Below, piece by piece: positions 6,621 to 55,439 of a stretch of 64,000 nt of DNA. The notes below the pieces were generated by a model that saw only the letters and a program-made list of their open reading frames with translations, had not been told where the DNA came from and did no database searches. The translations under genes and the position numbers were made by a program. Positions within the stretch are counted from its first letter, which is position 1. Every line of letters starts with the position of its first letter. Source of the stretch: Naegleria gruberi (Eukaryota); NCBI GenBank assembly GCA_000004985.1, contig GG738853.1; one strand, written 5' to 3'.

Positions 6621-7934
6621 ATGATGGGAAGGTTGAGCTATTCTAAGGGCGTACTCTTGATGGCTCTTTTGGTCATTCTCGCTGTGATTGCATGCAGTGA
6701 TAATGTCCATGCTGCTCCAGCTACACCAGCTGATCCAACAAGGAAACAAACAAAGCCAGTTGCAGCTTCCCCAGCCACACCAGCTGCTAAACAAACCAAT
6801 TCATCCATTACGGAAATTTTCACATGTTTTGGAATCAAATCTGATGATAAGAAGGTTTGTAATGGTTTAGGAACTTGTATTGGAAAAGATAAATGTCGTT
6901 GCATGCCTGGAAAAGCTGGTCCAGAATGTAAACACAGTGGCGGTTTACCTCCAAAACCACAACCAAAGATTATCAATTCTCTATCCAAGAATAACTCTAC
7001 AAAGCCAGTAATTAAACCAGCCTCTATTACAGATCCATCCACTAAGAAAAAGGAAATTTTCACATGTTTTGGAATCAAATCTGATGAAAAGAAGGTCTGT
7101 AATGGTAAAGGAACTTGTATTGGAACAGATAAATGTCGCTGCATGCCTGGAAAAGCTGGTCCAGAATGTAAACACAGTGGTGGTTTACCTCCACCAAAAC
7201 CAAAACCCCAACCAAAGATTAAACCAGCCTCTGTTACAGATCCATCCACCAAGAGTAAGGAAATTTTCACATGCTTTGGTATTAAGTCTGACGAAAAGAA
7301 GGTTTGTAATGGTTTAGGAACTTGTATTGGTAAAGATAAATGTCGCTGCATGCCTGGTAAAGCTGGTCCAGAATGTAAGCACAGTGGTGGTTTACCTCCA
7401 AACCCAAAACCACAACCAAAACCACAACCAAAGATTATCAATTCTCCATCCAAGAATAACTCTACAAAGCCAGTAATTAAGCCAGCATCTATTACAGATC
7501 CTTCCACCATTGGTTTACCAATTCCACCAAAACCACAACCAAAACCTTCTCAACAAAAGCGGAAAGAATCTTTAATCAATAACACCATTAAACCTAAAGA
7601 AGTTGAACCAAAGAAGGATATCAAAATAGATGAAAATCCTGAAAAGAAAGAAGACGAAAAGAATAATGAAAAAACAAAAGAGAAGAGTTCACAAAACAAG
7701 AAACTCAAGAGATGTGGAAAGAAAAAGTGCCAGAAGAGAAAGAATAAGAAGGAAACAAATCAAACAACCACCGAAAAGCAAAAGCTTGACACTATTATTA
7801 ATATGATTAGAAAATTGATTGCTTCAAAGAGAAAGCCAAGTCCACAACCAAATCAAACACCTGTTCAATCTGCTAATGGTCAAAAGTCATCTGTAAACAT
7901 TTCCAATATTATTAATGTTGAAAACGAGCATTGA
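6621..7934 (+). CDS. Secreted protein with three tandem 6-Cys EGF-like repeats separated by Pro/Lys-rich linkers, and a lysine-rich C-terminal tail.
   Basis: ATG at 6621. N-terminal signal peptide (MMGRLSYSKGVLLMALLVILAVIACS). Three near-identical units EIFTCFGIKSDxKKVCNGxGTCIGxDKCRCMPGKAGPECKHSGGLPP. The antisense 290-aa ORF (6638-7510) is a repeat artefact. Confidence 0.7.
   Translation: MMGRLSYSKGVLLMALLVILAVIACSDNVHAAPATPADPTRKQTKPVAASPATPAAKQTNSSITEIFTCFGIKSDDKKVCNGLGTCIGKDKCRCMPGKAGPECKHSGGLPPKPQPKIINSLSKNNSTKPVIKPASITDPSTKKKEIFTCFGIKSDEKKVCNGKGTCIGTDKCRCMPGKAGPECKHSGGLPPPKPKPQPKIKPASVTDPSTKSKEIFTCFGIKSDEKKVCNGLGTCIGKDKCRCMPGKAGPECKHSGGLPPNPKPQPKPQPKIINSPSKNNSTKPVIKPASITDPSTIGLPIPPKPQPKPSQQKRKESLINNTIKPKEVEPKKDIKIDENPEKKEDEKNNEKTKEKSSQNKKLKRCGKKKCQKRKNKKETNQTTTEKQKLDTIINMIRKLIASKRKPSPQPNQTPVQSANGQKSSVNISNIINVENEH
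6813..7420. repeat. Three tandem near-identical DNA repeat units (periods about 240 and 207 bp) encoding the EGF-like modules.
   Basis: The string gaaattttcacatg(t/c)tttgg...aaacacagtgg(c/t)ggtttacctcc recurs starting near 6813, 7053 and 7260. Confidence 0.8.
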
Positions 7935-8098: not shown

Positions 8099-8908
8099 AT
8101 GCAACACGGCCAAGAGCATCCAGTTTCTCTCTCACTTGTTGATTTTATTTTCTTTCGTGATGAAGATCACTCCACACCATCATTGGAACAATTTCAAACT
8201 CTGATCCGTAATTTCAAGAGGAAAATTAGTGAACCTAGAAGTAGATTTTCCACTAAACAAATCGAAAATTTTGATGATTTACCAATTAAGGAAGAATTAT
8301 TGAGAGGAATTTATGGAAATGGATTGGAAAAAATGTCAGAAATTCAAAAGAAATGCATCTTGCCAATTATTTCATCAGAACCGCCTGTAGATGTACTAGT
8401 TGTGTCTGGAACTGGAACTGGAAAGACATCAAGCTATTGTATTTCAATTATTCAAAGATTGGATACTAGTCGAAAGTTGACTAAACTTTGTCCACAAGCA
8501 ATAGTAATTGTTTCATCGAGGGAATTAGCTTATGGAGTTTCCAGAGTAGTTGAAAATTATGGGAAATATCTGAATGTGAAATCTAAACCTCTAGTTCTCT
8601 CACCAACCAAAGAAATAGATGACAATTGTCATGTGCTTGTAGGAACAGCAGGAATCACGTTGGCTTATCTCAAAAATAGAAAGCTGGATGTTAATCAGTT
8701 GAAAATTCTAATATTTGATGATATAGATGATTCAATATCTGGAAATCAAATTTCATATGACAATATTTGTGACATTTTCAAAAAACTCAAGAAAATTAAT
8801 TTACAAATTTGCATCTATTGTTGTGGAGTGATATCAGAAAAAACACAAGAATTGATTGAAAAAGAGCTTAGAGACCCAGTGATTATTAAACAGGATATTA
8901 GAAAGTGA
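8099..8908 (+). CDS. eIF4A-like DEAD-box protein truncated to the N-terminal RecA domain. Motif II is degenerate (DEAD -> DDID) and motif III SAT is replaced by CCG.
   Basis: Collinear with eIF4A. Q-motif region (GIYGNGLEKMSEIQKKCILPII). Motif I VSGTGTGKT. Motif Ia SSRELAY. The DEAD position reads FDDIDD (nt ~8717-8731). The ORF stops right after the motif-III region; no domain-2 motifs (IV-VI) were found downstream. Confidence 0.6.
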   Translation: MQHGQEHPVSLSLVDFIFFRDEDHSTPSLEQFQTLIRNFKRKISEPRSRFSTKQIENFDDLPIKEELLRGIYGNGLEKMSEIQKKCILPIISSEPPVDVLVVSGTGTGKTSSYCISIIQRLDTSRKLTKLCPQAIVIVSSRELAYGVSRVVENYGKYLNVKSKPLVLSPTKEIDDNCHVLVGTAGITLAYLKNRKLDVNQLKILIFDDIDDSISGNQISYDNICDIFKKLKKINLQICIYCCGVISEKTQELIEKELRDPVIIKQDIRK

Positions 8909-9205
8909 ATATTTATTGGAAAGTGATTATTGGAATCTCGAATGCTTAATGATTCTATTGTAGATCCAATGGAAGCAACAAAAGACATGACTCGGTTATT
9001 TATGGTGTTTCTTTTTTTAGATAAACATAGCAAGACTAGCTGGTGGAGTTGATTTAAAGTGACCATCCCAGCGCTGGGATGGTCGATTGCCGCCAAAAAT
9101 CCCGTTGCCACTGTAGTTCATTGTAGTGTTGAACACTGATCCAGTCCTAATTATAGATTTCTTTCAAATTCTGGAAAGTTTGAGAAAACAGTTGTTAACA
9201 AAATA

Positions 9206-11071
9206 ATGCCACAACTGGCTGTAATAAATGTCACAGATCTGCCACCATTTCATCAAATACCATCATATAAATTCCAAAATACTGACTATTATCGTATAAA
9301 TGATGTTATTAATTCATACTTTGTTAAAAAATCAAATCATTCACCTTCCAAAATATTAGGAACTGTGTTTTGGGGAAGGAGCCATGTAGTTCCCTCCAAG
9401 GAGGCTGGAAAAGAAATCGGAATGGCAATTGATAAAGGACCAGAAACTATAATTGACCTAGCTGCTGTATTTTACTTGATCATGAATGTGACAAGTAGTA
9501 ATAAGGAAACTCAAAGTGTTGTTTTCAATCATATCATCTCCACTCTCAACCCTCCAATTAATAACAATGCTACTCTTCAAGAAATTCCTTCTGAACTTGG
9601 TTCCTGTGATTCGTATTTTGGATTAGAGGAGTATTTTGATGATGAAGAGGATGAAGATGAATCCGATTCCAACTCTTCGAATAAACCTCAATCGACTCAA
9701 AATAACGATTCAATTAATCAAGAAGATATTATGTTAGATGAGGGAAGGGTTAATTCAGATTCCTTACCACCAAATAATCAACGAAATGAAGAATTTCTCC
9801 CCGAATATGTTGTTGTTGAGCAAAGCAATACCCCAATGTCAAATAATTTTATTAACCGTCTGGAATATGATTCGTATTCATCTGCTATTTCTCAAATAAC
9901 AGAAATAATCAATACTCAAAATTTTAGTCACTTCGATCAATTAAGCAATCCATTTTCAAACGTGTGCAGTTACTTTGGAAATAATTTTTCAGTTTCACAA
10001 TTCAATTCAAATAGCCTCTCTCAATTTAGTCAACCAATATTTTCTCAAATACCAACAAATTACACAGAAACATCATCAAGGGTTCCAGTTGACCAAATCA
10101 TCGAAAAAGAGATTGAAAAAGTTATCATCAATGGATTTTCATGTTCACACTGCAATAACCCTGCATCAGTGTACTTTTCAGGGAAGTATTCAGGTATAGA
10201 TAGTCATGATTGTTTTTCAAAATATTCAAGAAACAGATGTAGAATGGATCTAGATTGCTTTGAGAAACTCCTTAAGGCACAAAATCATGATTTGTATCTT
10301 TGGTTTGAATGTTTGTTAAAAACCAGAGAAGGAAGAAAAAAAGTATTTGATATTTTAAATAATGAAGACAGTGAACGAATTAAGGTGCTATTTAAGGAGA
10401 GAAAGCAAACACGTAATGTGGATGATGTGATGTATTGGAAAGATAATAATTTAGTTTCTTTCAAAATTGTGAATAATTTAAGAAAAGAATGTACGCTTAG
10501 TGATGAATTACCACCAACAAAAGATATGAAGACACGAAAGAAAATTATTGATGAAGAAGTGGAAAAAATCTTCAAAATTATTGCTCCCTCAAACGGCATT
10601 GTTGGTTTTATTGCTGATCTACATGTGTCAGTTGAGCAAATCTTGAAATTATATAGATGTCTTGGCGGGAAACAATTACCAAAAACAGTTTATTTCAAAC
10701 TGTGTGTAGATGGACGAGAGATTAATGGCAAGAAACAAATTGCAATTGCCCTTGTTCCTCTTAATCTACGAGATATATTTCCAACTCAAGCAGTCTCATC
10801 TGTTTTCTATATTGGGCTATTTCTTGGATCAGAAACTAAAAGTTCATTACCTGAAACAGTTGGTTCTTTATCGGATAGTCTAAAATTCATCAGCTCAACA
10901 ACATTCGAAAATTCAAACATTAATTTTTTGAAATTCAAATATTTGAAAATGAAGAATTTATTAGATACTATTTATCCAAACAAAACCACAGTCAGAAGTA
11001 GAAGAAGCAATCTTCTTTTGGATCATAGTGGTCATGTATACATGGTAGACATCTGTGTGAGTATTCAATGA
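9206..11071 (+). CDS. Hypothetical protein (621 aa) with an acidic/Ser-rich N-terminal half and a Cys/His-containing C-terminal half.
   Basis: Long ORF with ATG at 9206. Dictyostelid-like composition. No family recognised by eye. The 3' end overlaps the convergent gene at 10961-11641. Confidence 0.5.
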   Translation: MPQLAVINVTDLPPFHQIPSYKFQNTDYYRINDVINSYFVKKSNHSPSKILGTVFWGRSHVVPSKEAGKEIGMAIDKGPETIIDLAAVFYLIMNVTSSNKETQSVVFNHIISTLNPPINNNATLQEIPSELGSCDSYFGLEEYFDDEEDEDESDSNSSNKPQSTQNNDSINQEDIMLDEGRVNSDSLPPNNQRNEEFLPEYVVVEQSNTPMSNNFINRLEYDSYSSAISQITEIINTQNFSHFDQLSNPFSNVCSYFGNNFSVSQFNSNSLSQFSQPIFSQIPTNYTETSSRVPVDQIIEKEIEKVIINGFSCSHCNNPASVYFSGKYSGIDSHDCFSKYSRNRCRMDLDCFEKLLKAQNHDLYLWFECLLKTREGRKKVFDILNNEDSERIKVLFKERKQTRNVDDVMYWKDNNLVSFKIVNNLRKECTLSDELPPTKDMKTRKKIIDEEVEKIFKIIAPSNGIVGFIADLHVSVEQILKLYRCLGGKQLPKTVYFKLCVDGREINGKKQIAIALVPLNLRDIFPTQAVSSVFYIGLFLGSETKSSLPETVGSLSDSLKFISSTTFENSNINFLKFKYLKMKNLLDTIYPNKTTVRSRRSNLLLDHSGHVYMVDICVSIQ

Positions 11072-36393: not shown

Positions 36394-36397
36394 GGTG

Positions 36398-36468
36398 TAG
36401 GAAGACAGGGAATCGAACCCTGATCTTAGGAACCACAATCCCATGTTCTACCACTGAACTATCTCCCT
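36398..36468 (-). tRNA. tRNA-His (anticodon GUG).
   Basis: Folded by hand on the minus strand. Acceptor AGGGAGA/TCTTCCT (one G-U pair). D-arm GTTC-AGTGGTA-GAAC. Anticodon stem TGGGA/TCCTA with loop TTGTGGT. T-arm CAGGG-TTCGATT-CCCTG. Discriminator A. No encoded CCA and no intron. Confidence 0.8.
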
Positions 36469-38150: not shown

Positions 38151-39284
38151 TTAATTTTTTTGAAATAATTTGGAATTGATAAAATTCAACAATTCAGAGC
38201 TAGGTTCTTGTTCACTGAAATTCACCACCTTGGATTTGGAATTTTCCAAATCGGTATGTACAATTTGGTCAACATTAAGATGACATTTACCCAACTGAGC
38301 TACCAAAATATCCATCATGTGAACATATTGTTCATTCGAAATTTCTTCCAATTTCAATTCATTGGCCAAACTTGTCATTTTAACATGATGAAGTCCACAA
38401 GCTACAATATCACTCCTGAAAGATTGTAAATCTTGACTACTCAAATTCAGATTCATTGCCACGCCATGCATTGATACAAATCTCGATAATTGCAATCCAA
38501 TACTTGCTAACTTTCTCTTCTTTTCTTGTGAATTATTCTCATCAGACTGTTCACAAAGTTTCATACTACTGCTAATATAAATACCCATCTCTGATTCTCC
38601 TCCAACATTCAATTCAATTCTTTCACCCTTTTCAATATTCTCCACTTGGCCCTTCACATCTTTCAGTAAATCATTTGAAAATTGTTGAAGAAATGGAACA
38701 CACAGAGAACGAAGCATAAACTCATCTGAAAACCATTTGATATTCTTTTGGAGAAATGAACTATTCTCCAAATCAAAAAGTGGATACAAAACTAATTGAC
38801 CAGGACAGTGAAAGGTAATTCCACCTCCACGACCAATTTTGTGAATGGCCAATTGTCTTGGATTGTGAAGAATGTGATTTTTGGAAAAGGTTTCGTCAAA
38901 TCTTAACTTTCCAATAGTGAAACAAGATTCTGAATGTTCTGTTGCAATCATGTATTGTCTGTGTTGTAAATTATTGTTTTGATGTTCTTGTTTCAAATTC
39001 CTCAAATAATCGAATAGAAATTGTTGAAATTGTAAACTTTGTTCATATTTCGAATTGGATAAGAGAATTAAACAAAGAGAATCGTATCCTTCCTTTCCTT
39101 TTGTATTTCTAGTTTGTGCAGTATTGAATAATTCATTTTCTTTCTTTTCCATCCACTTTCCAAAACCTTCCGATATTGAATAGTTACATTTCTGATAAAC
39201 ATTCTTCCCAACATTCAATAATCCTCCACATTTATTACCAGAAATCAATCCAATCCTTCTCCTTCCACAACTCAATCGAAGCAT
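38151..39284 (-). CDS. lipB: Lipoyl(octanoyl) transferase (LipB family), probably mitochondrial, with a C-terminal extension.
   Basis: LipB active-site region IGRGGGITFHCPGQLVLYPLFDL. C-terminal KLASIGLQLSRFVSMHGVAMNLN matches the conserved Lys region. The N-terminus is basic, like a presequence. Confidence 0.7.
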   Translation of the reverse strand: MLRLSCGRRRIGLISGNKCGGLLNVGKNVYQKCNYSISEGFGKWMEKKENELFNTAQTRNTKGKEGYDSLCLILLSNSKYEQSLQFQQFLFDYLRNLKQEHQNNNLQHRQYMIATEHSESCFTIGKLRFDETFSKNHILHNPRQLAIHKIGRGGGITFHCPGQLVLYPLFDLENSSFLQKNIKWFSDEFMLRSLCVPFLQQFSNDLLKDVKGQVENIEKGERIELNVGGESEMGIYISSSMKLCEQSDENNSQEKKRKLASIGLQLSRFVSMHGVAMNLNLSSQDLQSFRSDIVACGLHHVKMTSLANELKLEEISNEQYVHMMDILVAQLGKCHLNVDQIVHTDLENSKSKVVNFSEQEPSSELLNFINSKLFQKN

Positions 39285-39787
39285 TTTCTATCAAAATATC
39301 CCACAACTCAACTATTAATAATTCAATTCTCAGTATTTACCCAACAGTTGCTGCTAATCAACCATAATACTGCACACTACACACCAGCAATTGCTGAGAA
39401 TCCAAATAGCCACCACATACCTATTGAATGTTCTCTTTTTGATTGAACAATTGCTTCAATTTATCCAAATTTCCGTATTAAATTAGGTTATTTGTAAACA
39501 ACATCTCCATTTTTTCACCGTAAAACTGAGATTTCTCACCAACAAATCAAAAAACGACAATTTTTTCCCTTACTGTTTCTCTCTTACACTGCGTTTGTGT
39601 TAAAAACAGCACACAAAATGATTGAATTCTCAATATTATCAACAATGCAGAATTTCGTTCCATCACCAAATTGTTGCTTGTTTGCTGAGGTTGATTGTTG
39701 TTATTGTTGAGGATTCGAGTAGTGGATTGTGTGAGGGTTCAATTGTGTGGGCGTGGATAATTAATTAGCAGAGTGGAAAAAAAAGAG
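39285..39787. promoter_or_regulatory. About 500-bp bidirectional intergenic region between divergent lipB and lipA.
   Basis: Head-to-head gene arrangement. No element could be called from sequence alone. Confidence 0.3.
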
Positions 39788-41245
39788 ATGAAGAGGAGCA
39801 GTGGGATAATAGACAAGATTGTGAAGGCAGGTTTGAAGAGGCAATTTTATTCGAAAGGTACTCATTGTGAGCAGTTGATGAAGATGAGTGGACGAAAGGG
39901 AGTGGATTTTCATTTGAGTAATTTGGGAGGAGGAATTTTGCATCAATGTAGTACTGCTGTTGGAGTTTCGAATAATGTTGAAGAAATGAATCAAACTTGG
40001 CAAGAACGAAGAAATATCAAGAGAATGAATCGATTGAAAGAAAAGAAAGTGGAAGAAACTCAACATTCTGAAGCACTTTTACAAGAAAGAGACGAAATGG
40101 TTAAAAAATCATTAGAAATATTACAATCCCGAATGGACGAAATGGAAAACTTTCAGATAATTCGTTCATTTCTTCCAAAATCTATATCAGATGCTGATTT
40201 ACTCACTAAATACTATCCAGCACTCAAAGATTCGGATAATTCTATTCGATATGATGGTAAACTAAAGAATGTAGATACCATTCGTGCAAAACCAAGATGG
40301 TTACTTTCGAATATAATTCCAAAGAATGAAGAATCAAATTCCAATTACAATCGTCTCAGAAACACATTAAGCGGACTCAAACTAAACACTGTCTGTGTAG
40401 AAGCCAAATGTCCAAACATTGGAGAATGTTGGGGAGGAAAATCCCAAACTAAACATCAAGATTCGAATATAAATATTCTAGACGAATCGAACAACCATCA
40501 AATGGCCACAGCAACCATCATGCTAATGGGTGATACTTGCACTCGTGGTTGCAGATTCTGCTCAGTCAAGACAAGCAAATGTCCTCCACCCTTAGATCCT
40601 TCAGAACCTGAAAACACCGCAGATGCCATCCATAAATGGGGTTTAGAATATGTTGTCTTGACATCTGTCGATCGAGATGATTTGACAGATGGAGGAGCTC
40701 AACATTTTTATGAAACTGTTCAAAAGATTAAGGAAAAAAATCCTAAAATTTTGGTGGAATGCTTAACTGGTGATTTTCAAGGAGATTTGGAATGTATTCG
40801 AAAGATGAGTTTATCTGGAATGGATGTTTATGCGCATAATGTTGAAACTGTGGAAGAGTTGACTCCACAAGTGAGAGATTACAGAGCTACCTTTCGTCAA
40901 TCATTGAAAGTTTTGAAACTTGTAAAGGAATTTAATCCGAAACTCATTACAAAAAGTTCAATAATGGTTGGCTTGGGAGAAAGTGATCAACAAATATTCG
41001 AAACCATGTGGGAATTGAAGAATGCAGGTGTAGATTGCATTACCATTGGTCAATACCTTCGTCCAACGAAAATGCACATGAAAGTTTTGGAATATTTCAC
41101 ACCAAAGAGATTCGAATTGTTACAAGAAATTGGAGAGAAAGTTTTTGGATTTAAATATGTGGCAAGTGGACCAATGGTTCGTTCAAGTTATAGAGCTGGA
41201 GAATTGTTTTTGAAGAATCTCATTTTGAAAGAACAAGTTGTTTAA
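39788..41245 (+). CDS. Lipoyl synthase (LipA/LIAS, radical SAM).
   Basis: N-terminal auxiliary-cluster motif [12 protein letters not shown]. Radical-SAM motif CTRGCRFC. Conserved [19 protein letters not shown] and C-terminal SSYRAGE. The track start at 39773 is GTG; first ATG is at 39788. Confidence 0.9.
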
Positions 41246-53173: not shown

Positions 53174-53404
53174 AATCATTGAATCATTCTCAATATTACC
53201 TTCACTGCCACACACCACATCTACTTGTATCATACATTAAATATTTCAACAATTTACAATATTACCAAGCAGCTGTCATCTTTTTTAACCTATTTCCCAT
53301 TTGGCATTCCATTACTCCATCAAATTTTCCACATCTTGCTCTAAAGTTTACAAAAATCACCAAATTTGCCTTCGAACCGTACACACAACTCACGGACAAA
53401 AAAA

Positions 53405-55439
53405 ATGAAGAGAAAGATCTTGGGAAGAATCCTCTGCCAACCAACACAAGAGGCCAATAAACAACAACAGCTGATGAACCTGTTGTTGATCAATAATAAG
53501 AATCATCATCAGATGAAGATGAAAAATACATTAACAGAAAAAAGACAATTTTCGACACAACAAATTGTTGAATCTTCCTTTGGTCATCATCATCAATTTC
53601 TTGTTGATAACAAGCCTTTGATTGTTGATCAACAGGTGAGTCATATCAAGGGATCGACAAGGGAACCACTCATTCATGAAACCTTGTTTGAATTGTTTGA
53701 GAAACGTGTCTATGAGATGGATTCTCATCCATTGTTGCAAGTTAGTGGTTCCGAACATAATTTAAATCAGGATCAGACCTTTTCATGGAGAGAGGTTCAT
53801 GAGCAGAGTTTAAAACTTGCTAATGCTCTTCATAGATTGGGATATAAGAAGGAGGATCGTATTGGAATTTGGATGCCTAATTCACATGAATGGTCAATTG
53901 TGTTGATGGCAGCTGCCAAGTTGGGTTTGATTGTTGTAAATGTTAATCCTGCTTATAGAAAGCATGAATTGCAACATGCTTTGAATTTGGTACAATGCAA
54001 GGGTTTGATTATTGTTCCAGAATATAAGGGAACTAATTATGTTCAAATGTTATATGATTTGTGTCCTGGATTGGATAGAAATGTGAATCAAAATGGCGGA
54101 AAACATGCTTATTCAGATGAAATGCAAGTGCCAACTGTTGAATCTGAAGCATTACCTCATTTGAGACATATTTTCTACTGTTCTCCATCTAGAGCTTTCT
54201 TCCCTGGAATGATTGATTTTACAAATGAATTGTTGAACATGTCCATTCCAAAAGGATTGACTCATCAACAATGGATGAAAGCCAAGCATAATTGTAATGA
54301 TACTTTAAAGTAAGTAGTGCAGATCTTAAAGTGTGAAATTTAACATTTCCAAAAATTTAATTAGTATTCAATTTACATCTGGAACAACTGGATTACCAAA
54401 GGGAGCTGCCCTTTCACATTTTAACATTGTAAATAATTCATATTTTGTTGGAAAGGCAATGAATTTGCAGACTGGAGTTGACAAACTGGCCTTGTGTGTT
54501 CCATTTTACCATTGTTTTGGTTCAAATTTGGGATTCTTGGCCTTCTCCCTTCATGGTTGTGGAATTGTCTTGTCAAGCTTTGGATTTGATCCTGAAGCCA
54601 CTCTCAGAGCAGTTCACAAATACAAATGCACAGCTCTTCATGGCGTTCCAACAATGTTTATTGCTGAATTGGAACATCCAAACTTTAAGAAATATGACTT
54701 GTCATCCCTTCGTACAGGTATTGTGGCTGGTGCTTTGTGTCCAATGCCACTCATGAAAAGATGTATCAATGAAATGAATTTGAGAGAATTGATTAATGTT
54801 TATGGTATGACTGAGACATCTCCTTACTCATTCAATACACATATTAATGATAGTTTGGAAGTTCGTACCACCTCAGTTGGTAGAATCCATCCTCATGTTG
54901 AAGCAAGAGTTGTGGATCCAGAAACTGGAAAGGTTGTCCCATTTGGAACTCAAGGTGAATTGCAAGTGAGAGGATATTTGGTTATGAAATATTATTGGGA
55001 TCAACCAGAAGCCACTAAGAAAGTCATTGAAAATGGATGGATGAAGACTGGTGATATTGCCGTATTCAGAACCGATGAAAATGGACCATACTGTAGCATT
55101 GAAGGAAGAATTAAGGATATTATCATTAGAGGAGGTGAAAATATTGTACCACGTGAAATTGAGAATTTCCTCTACATGAATCCAAATATTAAGGATGTTG
55201 CAATTGTTGGAGTTCCTGATGAGAAATACGGAGAACAAATTTGTGCTTGTATTATATTGAAGAGTGGAAAATCATTAACTGAAGAAGAATTGAGAGCTTT
55301 CTGTCAAGGACAAATAGCTCACTACAAGATTCCAAAATATGTCATGTTTATGGATGAATTCCCAATGACTGTTACAGGAAAGATTCAAAAGTTTGTATTG
55401 CGTGATTGGGCAACAGACAAATTAGGATTGAAAAAGTAA
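53405..55439 (+). CDS. Acyl-CoA synthetase / AMP-binding enzyme (medium-chain, ACSF2-like), 2 exons: join(53405..54309, 54365..55439), about 659 aa.
   Basis: The AMP-binding motif (N)IQFTSGTTGLPKGAALSH is reconstructed across a 55-nt intron. Motifs YGMTE, TGD..., GRIKDIIIRGGENI and a C-terminal Lys region. Confidence 0.85.

Follow-up and report, generated by a model that had tools for sequence, protein, structure and literature searches.

DEAD-box proteins have as their defining feature two RecA-like domains, which close around ATP and RNA. Hydrolysis of ATP by these proteins requires the arginines of motif VI, and clamping of RNA requires motifs IV and V of the second RecA-like domain (RecA2), motif V also being counted among the requirements for hydrolysis; motif III couples the ATPase activity to unwinding. 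Mutants of the translation-initiation helicase eIF4A, engineered by Pause & Sonenberg in motif II (DQAD) or in motif VI, are reported to be dominant negative. Loss of catalysis is also found in Utp25, a two-domain pseudohelicase (PMC9539457). Here we describe a gene of the amoeboflagellate Naegleria gruberi whose product consists of the first of these domains (RecA1) without the second. It corresponds to an open reading frame (ORF) at positions 8099-8908 (plus strand) of a 64,000-nucleotide stretch of contig GG738853.1 (assembly GCA_000004985.1), referred to below as the window, and it belongs to a family of such half-length proteins encoded in N. gruberi and Willaertia magna. We consider it probable, with moderate confidence, that this protein is a lineage-specific, stand-alone pseudohelicase, dead for hydrolysis, which would act by binding partners and perhaps nucleotide.

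The ORF is a complete, intronless coding sequence of 269 amino acids (aa), running from an ATG embedded in A-rich sequence (TTGAAAAAAAATG) to a TGA. The Pfam search placed the DEAD domain (PF00270) on residues 81-228 (E=6.2e-20, 72 bits vs a gathering cutoff of 26) and gave no match to Helicase_C (PF00271) in the 269-aa protein. The best PDB sequence match obtained with phmmer was human eIF4A-I in entry 5ZBZ, a construct of the isolated DEAD domain (E=1.4e-27, 99.9 bits), in which chain residues 12-216, corresponding to all of RecA1, pair with query residues 54-263; yeast eIF4A (2e-24), Dbp5 (6e-23, 84.9 bits), eIF4A-III (2e-22) and DDX19B (8e-19, 71 bits) scored lower. The NCBIfam models of bacterial full-length helicases cover the protein only at profile positions ~1-210. 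The AlphaFold2 model has a mean pLDDT (predicted local distance difference test) of 75, with mostly >80 in the core (residues 54-266), where strands and helices alternate in the RecA1 order, and with residues 1-23 and 41-53 disordered; among the Foldseek matches to this model, the DEAD domain of human eIF4A, 2G9N, ranks first (E=1.6e-13, template-modelling score 0.78, target-normalised). The protein ends six residues past the last RecA1 strand (DPVII), at the point where the inter-domain linker of eIF4A starts. A preliminary description of this DNA, made from its letters, had read the ORF as collinear with eIF4A from the Q motif through motifs I, Ia, II and III and as stopping there. The phmmer, Pfam and Foldseek results agree with that reading, and the best PDB match is human eIF4A-I, not a member of the non-helicase family that had been allowed for as a contrary outcome. 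ORF 8099-8908 is a real gene for a stand-alone RecA1 domain of the eIF4A type. In the public N. gruberi annotation this locus is represented by EFC47751.1/XP_002680495.1 ('predicted protein, partial'), a 74-aa entry on a 695,587-bp scaffold that is identical to residues 53-126.

When three full-length eIF4A/FAL1 proteins were compared by tblastn with both strands of the 64-kb window, matches were found only at 8261-8896, all others having E>=0.5, and the second domain of a heterolobosean eIF4A used alone gave nothing in the window at E<=1. The lack of domain-2 motifs downstream, claimed initially for the coding strand, holds for either strand of the whole window. Between the stop codon and the next ORF lie 297 nucleotides with four stops in the same frame, and that next ORF (9206-11071, plus strand, 621 aa, also in the same frame) is an orphan gene with neither a Pfam nor a PDB match. 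A missed exon, or a fusion with the 9206 ORF, was considered and ruled out by the four intervening stops and the absence of helicase similarity; a downstream exon carrying motifs IV-VI, which the preliminary description had named as evidence that would speak against it, was likewise looked for with tblastn, in the in-frame stops and in the downstream ORF, and none was found. More generally, one might suppose that the gene model is an artefact and that a two-domain helicase has its second half in a missed exon, in a frameshifted stretch or beyond an assembly error. Genes of N. gruberi do carry introns (0.7 per gene; PMC5862402), and the TGA overlaps a GT (AAA, then GTGAAT) that is in principle a potential splice donor. 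However, RecA2-like sequence is absent from every frame of both strands, the window contains no N, the downstream ORF is unrelated, and the same end point is shared by all paralogues, by the W. magna proteins and by the independently assembled contigs L001, L003 and L004, so that we regard an artefact of this kind as extremely improbable.

The recognisable parts of the gene, all on the plus strand, are the following (motif assignments taken from alignment with PDB sequences):

8201..8266, plus strand, conserved part of the Naegleria-specific N-terminal extension (aa 35-56, LIRNFKRKISEPRSRFSTKQIE), alignable to two paralogues in their 270-aa and 264-aa versions

8321..8347, plus strand, Q motif, GLEKMSEIQ, with the Gln kept

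8375..8386, plus strand, S-E-P-P, across a three-residue insertion before motif I relative to human eIF4A-I

8405..8428, plus strand, motif I / Walker A, SGTGTGKT, with GxGKT intact

8513..8530, plus strand, motif Ia, degenerate (SSRELA vs PTRELA)

8588..8608, plus strand, site of a deletion that has removed the GG doublet of an RNA-contact loop, retained by eIF4A and most paralogues

8645..8656, plus strand, motif Ib, degenerate (TAGI vs TPGR)

8717..8728, plus strand, motif II / Walker B (aa 207-210), DDID vs DEAD, with the first Asp kept and the catalytic Glu changed to Asp

8819..8827, plus strand, motif III (aa 241-243), CCG vs SAT, with the Q-I-C signature just before it

8873..8908, plus strand, last RecA1 beta-strand (DPVII), six-residue tail and TGA

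Both the DDID and the CCG reported in the preliminary description were thus read again off the PDB alignment. In the Q motif, Met takes the place of the conserved Pro of GFxxPS in the 269-aa protein, and Leu or Met does so across all half proteins; the insertion stands in the context I-I-S-S-E-P-P-V-D-V, and within the N-terminal extension the AlphaFold2 model predicts, with low confidence, a helix at aa 29-44. Of the features expected of a DEAD-box helicase, the protein possesses the Q motif and motif I (AxxGxGKT) and lacks the two-domain core, the DEAD and the SAT. Since RecA2 is absent and motifs II, III, Ia, GG and Ib are decayed, the protein is predicted to be unable to hydrolyse ATP or to clamp or unwind RNA. 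The same losses bear on the idea of a split helicase, in which a RecA2 protein from another gene would pair in trans with the RecA1 protein and rebuild an eIF4A-like enzyme. Its intact Q motif and Walker A speak for such an arrangement, but no RecA2 coding sequence was found in the 64-kb window or beside two of the paralogues, where it was sought, and the losses on the RecA1 side (the Glu of motif II, motif III, Ia, GG and Ib) would, partly on general grounds, be beyond repair by any RecA2 partner; we hold the split helicase to be very unlikely.

Compared with the RecA1 domain of eIF4A (eIF4A-I/TIF1; PDB 2G9N and 1QDE), the 269-aa protein has the same fold, a collinear domain 1 with ~31-37% identity, the Q motif and Walker A, and it ends exactly where the crystal constructs of the eIF4A N-terminal domain end. 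It differs from eIF4A in having no RecA2, in the DDID, the CCG and the degenerate Ia, GG and Ib, and in its lineage-specific N-terminal extension. Full-length eIF4A proteins of the heterolobosean type (KAL9649469, P0276, P0277 and P0380) share with it the S-x-P-P and, ahead of motif III, a strand reading Q-[VI]-C-[LV]-[FY]; they differ in their two-domain build and in their canonical DEAD, SAT and HRIGRSGR motifs, evolve slowly and are ~75% identical to one another. Like Utp25, the half proteins are derived from DEAD-box proteins, have lost catalytic motifs and would be structural or binding components; unlike Utp25, which retains both RecA-like domains and is universally conserved, they have a single domain and are confined to a few amoeboflagellates.

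Four copies are present in N. gruberi, ORF 8099-8908 included, and at least two in W. magna. The members and their versions of motifs II and III are:

ORF 8099-8908, N. gruberi: motif II DDID, motif III CCG

EFC40029 (NAEGRDRAFT_72190), N. gruberi: model of 233 aa, with a near-identical 270-aa ORF on environmental contig L001; motif II DEFE, motif III SQD

EFC40005 (NAEGRDRAFT_72139), N. gruberi: model of 214 aa; motif II DRTG, motif III G--

EFC40071 (NAEGRDRAFT_72146), N. gruberi: model of 217 aa, with a near-identical 264-aa ORF on environmental contig L003; motif II VEEM, motif III GCA

KAL9649299 and KAL9657223, W. magna: two near-identical entries of 235 aa; motif II DQLD, motif III SLQ (read in KAL9649299)

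KAL9656172, W. magna: 247 aa; motif II DQLD, motif III SGL/SGN

EFC40029, EFC40005 and EFC40071 all lie on one N. gruberi scaffold of 333,733 bp. Every family member contains PF00270 only and ends 0-6 residues past a last RecA1 strand of the DP[IV]xI type. Models 72190 (233 aa) and 72146 (217 aa) are probably cut short at the N-terminus, because the near-identical ORFs on L001 and L003 run to 270 and 264 aa, and an extension with the consensus LIxxFKKQIxxPRxKFxxKQIE is common to these two ORFs and the 269-aa protein. On the DNA of L001 the ORF is closed by TAA and followed by AT-rich sequence, and on L003 the stop is followed by 550 bp and then by a peptidase gene on the minus strand; neither contig has any RecA2-like sequence. 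Motifs II and III are decayed in all half proteins, differently in each copy, the catalytic Glu of motif II being kept in two Naegleria copies only, while the P-loop Lys is invariant and every member has an acidic residue, Asp or Glu, at the first position of Walker B. ORF 8099-8908 displays all the traits by which the family was delimited: PF00270 only, the common end point, decayed motifs II and III, S-x-P-P, Q-I-C and P79->L/M. Two scans of metagenome contigs for additional members found none, contig L007 proving to be a bacterial DbpA-like locus.

The descent of the half proteins was examined in a neighbour-joining tree of 207 domain-1 columns (300 bootstraps, fungal Dbp5 as outgroup). All half proteins grouped together at 98%, with 83% for the inclusion of the Naegleria copies and 100% for the two Willaertia copies, values that long-branch attraction among fast-evolving sequences can inflate when neighbour-joining is used. 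The half clade falls inside the eIF4A group, where its most frequent sister in the bootstraps is the divergent full-length protein P0278, a placement likely affected by long-branch effects. Derived residues shared by all half proteins are P79->L/M, A103->S, P132 and A138->V/T. Rare characters tell more than the tree: within the eIF4A set compared, the P-P insertion and the Q-[VI]-C strand are confined to the half proteins and the full-length P0275-P0278, P0169 and P0380; 52 of 56 other aligned eIF4A sequences have a gap at the insertion, which is absent also from seven giant-virus eIF4As. P0275 is W. magna KAL9649469, a full-length protein with the S-x-P-P insertion and Q-V-C that is eIF4A-I-like by score (539 bits, vs 510 for eIF4A-III and 295 for DDX19B). 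In domain 1 the half proteins are 34-50% identical to full-length eIF4As of the heterolobosean type, a comparison set made up of W. magna and environmental sequences and not including N. gruberi's own eIF4A (XP_002676412); they are 32-39% identical to the insect and yeast eIF4A-group proteins P0014 and P0047, and 25-31% to Dbp5 (P0230).

Judged by these comparisons, the half proteins belong to the eIF4A lineage by descent, and full-length eIF4A of the heterolobosean type is the probable parental lineage. Because derived residues are shared and the end point is identical, we favour a scenario in which a single truncation would have preceded the split of Naegleria and Willaertia and been followed by gene duplication. 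An origin from Dbp5/DDX19, which would point to mRNA export through binding of Nup159/Nup214, was at first suspected, since an x-P-P insertion before motif I also occurs in Dbp5-type proteins, e.g., ANPPQNMIGQSQSGTGKT in P0230. This origin was dropped and now seems hardly conceivable, given the order of the PDB scores (eIF4A-I above Dbp5, and Dbp5 above DDX19B), the lower identity to P0230 than to P0014, P0047 and the heterolobosean-type eIF4As, and the presence of the insertion in the clearly eIF4A-type KAL9649469. Two of the full-length, insertion-bearing eIF4A-like genes, P0278 (L002, 4250-5545) and P0380 (L005, 8001-9374), lie on metagenome contigs that are rich in orphan and ankyrin genes and whose source may be either a protist or a giant virus; motifs V and VI of P0278 are decayed (HRIGRSGHYGYR). 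A giant-virus origin of the insertion-bearing eIF4As was also tried and rejected, the giant-virus eIF4As of IMG/VR being 43-53% identical to P0380/P0278 and devoid of the insertion.

Three Naegleria genes could be compared as DNA, and the ratio of non-synonymous to synonymous substitutions (dN/dS, Nei-Gojobori method, NG86) was 0.42-0.46 in all three pairs, with dN ~0.5-0.6 and dS ~1.2-1.4; a dS of 1.2-1.4 is near saturation and makes the ratios approximate, still well below 1. Stop codons represent 5.7% of the triplets of the plus strand of the window, and the chance of a 269-codon open frame is ~1e-7. As dN/dS lies well below 1, the half-helicase genes are maintained by purifying selection, and six or seven open frames with matching ends are not accidents.

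The mechanism that we propose for this stand-alone pseudohelicase family would start with the common ancestor of Naegleria and Willaertia, in which an eIF4A gene would have been duplicated and one copy shortened so as to end with the last strand of domain 1. Further duplication of this shortened gene would then have given the present four copies of N. gruberi and the two or more of W. magna. Selection would have kept the RecA1 fold, the P-loop Lys, the first acidic residue of Walker B, the LLRGIY helix and the family-specific (surface) residues, as well as, in Naegleria, the N-terminal extension. Since the catalytic parts are lost while the fold, the P-loop Lys, the Walker B acid and the extension are kept, the mode of action would be non-catalytic: a binding module that occupies or bridges a partner of the eIF4A N-terminal domain, such as a HEAT domain of the MIF4G/MA3 type or similar. 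A nucleotide-dependent mode may be possible in copies with both the Q motif and Walker A, among them the 269-aa protein. Membership in a conserved multi-copy family of Naegleria and Willaertia speaks more strongly than any other point for a truncation that is functional rather than accidental. The sequences show the architecture, the descent, the family, the decay of the motifs and the purifying selection; expression of the half proteins, their binding to partners and the identity of these partners are what we infer.

A dominant-negative or scaffolding role, which the preliminary description had put forward, is plausible as a candidate function. The engineered dominant-negative eIF4As resemble the half proteins in the loss of the catalytic Glu, and the D-Q-L-D of the Willaertia proteins is the same E->Q change, but they are full-length and poison eIF4F through an intact eIF4G-binding C-terminal domain that the half proteins do not possess. 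The MIF4G domain of eIF4G contacts eIF4A, at the level of domains, at three sites, two on the C-terminal domain and one on the N-terminal domain (PMC9177959). The 269-aa protein is devoid of the domain bearing two of the three sites and in this respect does not qualify as an eIF4F subunit, and because those two sites are on the missing domain, a role as decoy or adaptor would seem likelier than classical poisoning of eIF4F. As a more specific and tentative possibility, the vahlkampfiid RecA1 family might act in trans on translation initiation or on the remodelling of messenger ribonucleoproteins, e.g., as MIF4G/MA3 decoys or nucleotide-sensing adaptors, possibly in the rapid switch from amoeba to flagellate. 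If so, they would be a natural counterpart of the engineered dominant-negative eIF4A.

Several observations weigh against a maintained, partner-binding pseudohelicase. The main eIF4G contact of eIF4A sits on the domain that is missing. The nucleotide-binding residues are kept unevenly (Q->H together with GTSKT in EFC40029, GKK in EFC40005), so that no one ligand-binding mechanism suits all members. The family could be dispensable, as no orthologue was detected among the proteins predicted for N. fowleri or N. lovaniensis. Divergence is fast, paralogues within one genome being 37-44% identical, and exact look-ups of the 269-aa protein in assembled public runs gave no match and no transcript evidence; nor did assembled public data contain exact matches to model P0001 of N. 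gruberi, to the 74-aa fragment or to two neighbouring ORFs. The near-saturated dS and the possible long-branch inflation of monophyly mentioned above belong to the same side. It may therefore be asked whether the half genes are decaying relics, i.e., non-functional leftovers of partial eIF4A duplications that stay open by chance or under weak constraint. Besides the rapid divergence, the missing orthologues and the lack of transcript matches, this explanation would account for the erosion of all catalytic and RNA-binding motifs, different in each copy, and it is compatible with a public annotation that is poor or partial. It is countered by the independent copies, six or seven over two genera, whose open frames of 214-270 codons agree in start region and in end point, when even one such frame would be a matter of ~1e-7 by chance; by dN/dS values that are not ~1; by the conservation of core-fold residues, of the P-loop Lys and of family-specific residues; and by an AlphaFold2 model that is confidently RecA1. 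Overall we judge the relic explanation unlikely and retain the stand-alone pseudohelicase as the preferred reading.

By sequence, the half proteins form a real family of domain-truncated pseudoenzymes of restricted distribution that was previously undescribed. No description of this half-helicase family was found in the literature on eIF4A paralogues of Naegleria, on DEAD-box proteins with a single RecA domain and on pseudohelicases, and in a survey across eukaryotes N. gruberi is credited with a single eIF4A, the four accessions not being listed (PMC5862402 supplement). A conserved, multi-copy family containing RecA1 only would show that this half of the helicase has a selectable function of its own, and its members would serve as a natural tool for finding what the N-terminal domain of eIF4A binds. 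The four N. gruberi genes are now named automatically as 'ATP-dependent RNA helicase' or kept as a 74-aa fragment; we suggest 'eIF4A-like RecA1-only protein, predicted inactive' as their annotation.

Degenerate first domains of DEAD-box proteins are also found in tandem arrays of animals. The arrays of Stomoxys and Calicophoron resemble the half proteins in their eIF4A-like RecA1, decayed motifs and lack of matching RecA2, and differ in having many units per predicted polypeptide, where the half protein is single-domain, and in their animal hosts and independent origin. In Stomoxys calcitrans (P0123, LOC106083760) the predicted gene model contains up to eight RecA1 units and no domain 2, and that of Calicophoron daubneyi (P0121, CAL8078821) four units followed by one domain 2. 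Six other predicted proteins of 211-249 aa (P0151, P0179, P0197, P0208, P0239 and P0268) end at the RecA1 boundary, some with altered motifs (VETD/SDT, ELAD/SAN, DEAS/TGT); each may be a fragment, a pseudogene or another half-helicase of independent origin.

The window is compact and intron-poor (~34% GC), and its gene content includes RhoGEF, leucine-rich-repeat, kinase and ABC-transporter genes. Downstream of the half-helicase gene, a GC-richer intergenic block (9020-9140) contains a perfect 24-nucleotide palindrome, GACCATCCCAGCGCTGGGATGGTC, at 9061-9084, which is unique in the window; this block was considered as an RNA gene or terminator and discarded, with no tRNA or Rfam match and a fold z-score of -1.46 on either strand. 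Upstream, the product of 6621-7934 (plus strand) is 437 aa long and comprises a start resembling a signal peptide, three repeats of ~90 aa, each with an EGF-like domain (matching Teneurin-like EGF, E=4e-11), and a tail rich in Lys and Pro; the long ORF antisense to it, 6638-7510, probably arises artefactually from these repeats. Farther away, an AMP-binding enzyme extends over two plus-strand ORFs, 53366-54313 and 54333-55439 (Pfam profile positions 17-100 and 163-384), which are probably one gene with a short intron or a change of frame. A lipoyl ligase-like gene of the LplA/B type (38151-39284, minus strand) stands head to head with a lipoyl synthase gene (39773-41245, plus strand; radical S-adenosylmethionine and LIAS_N domains), the two constituting a lipoylation gene pair at 38151-41245. 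The sole RNA-family match in the window is a tRNA-His (GTG) at 36397-36468 (minus strand), between an ORF for a GH20 hexosaminidase and the next ORF.

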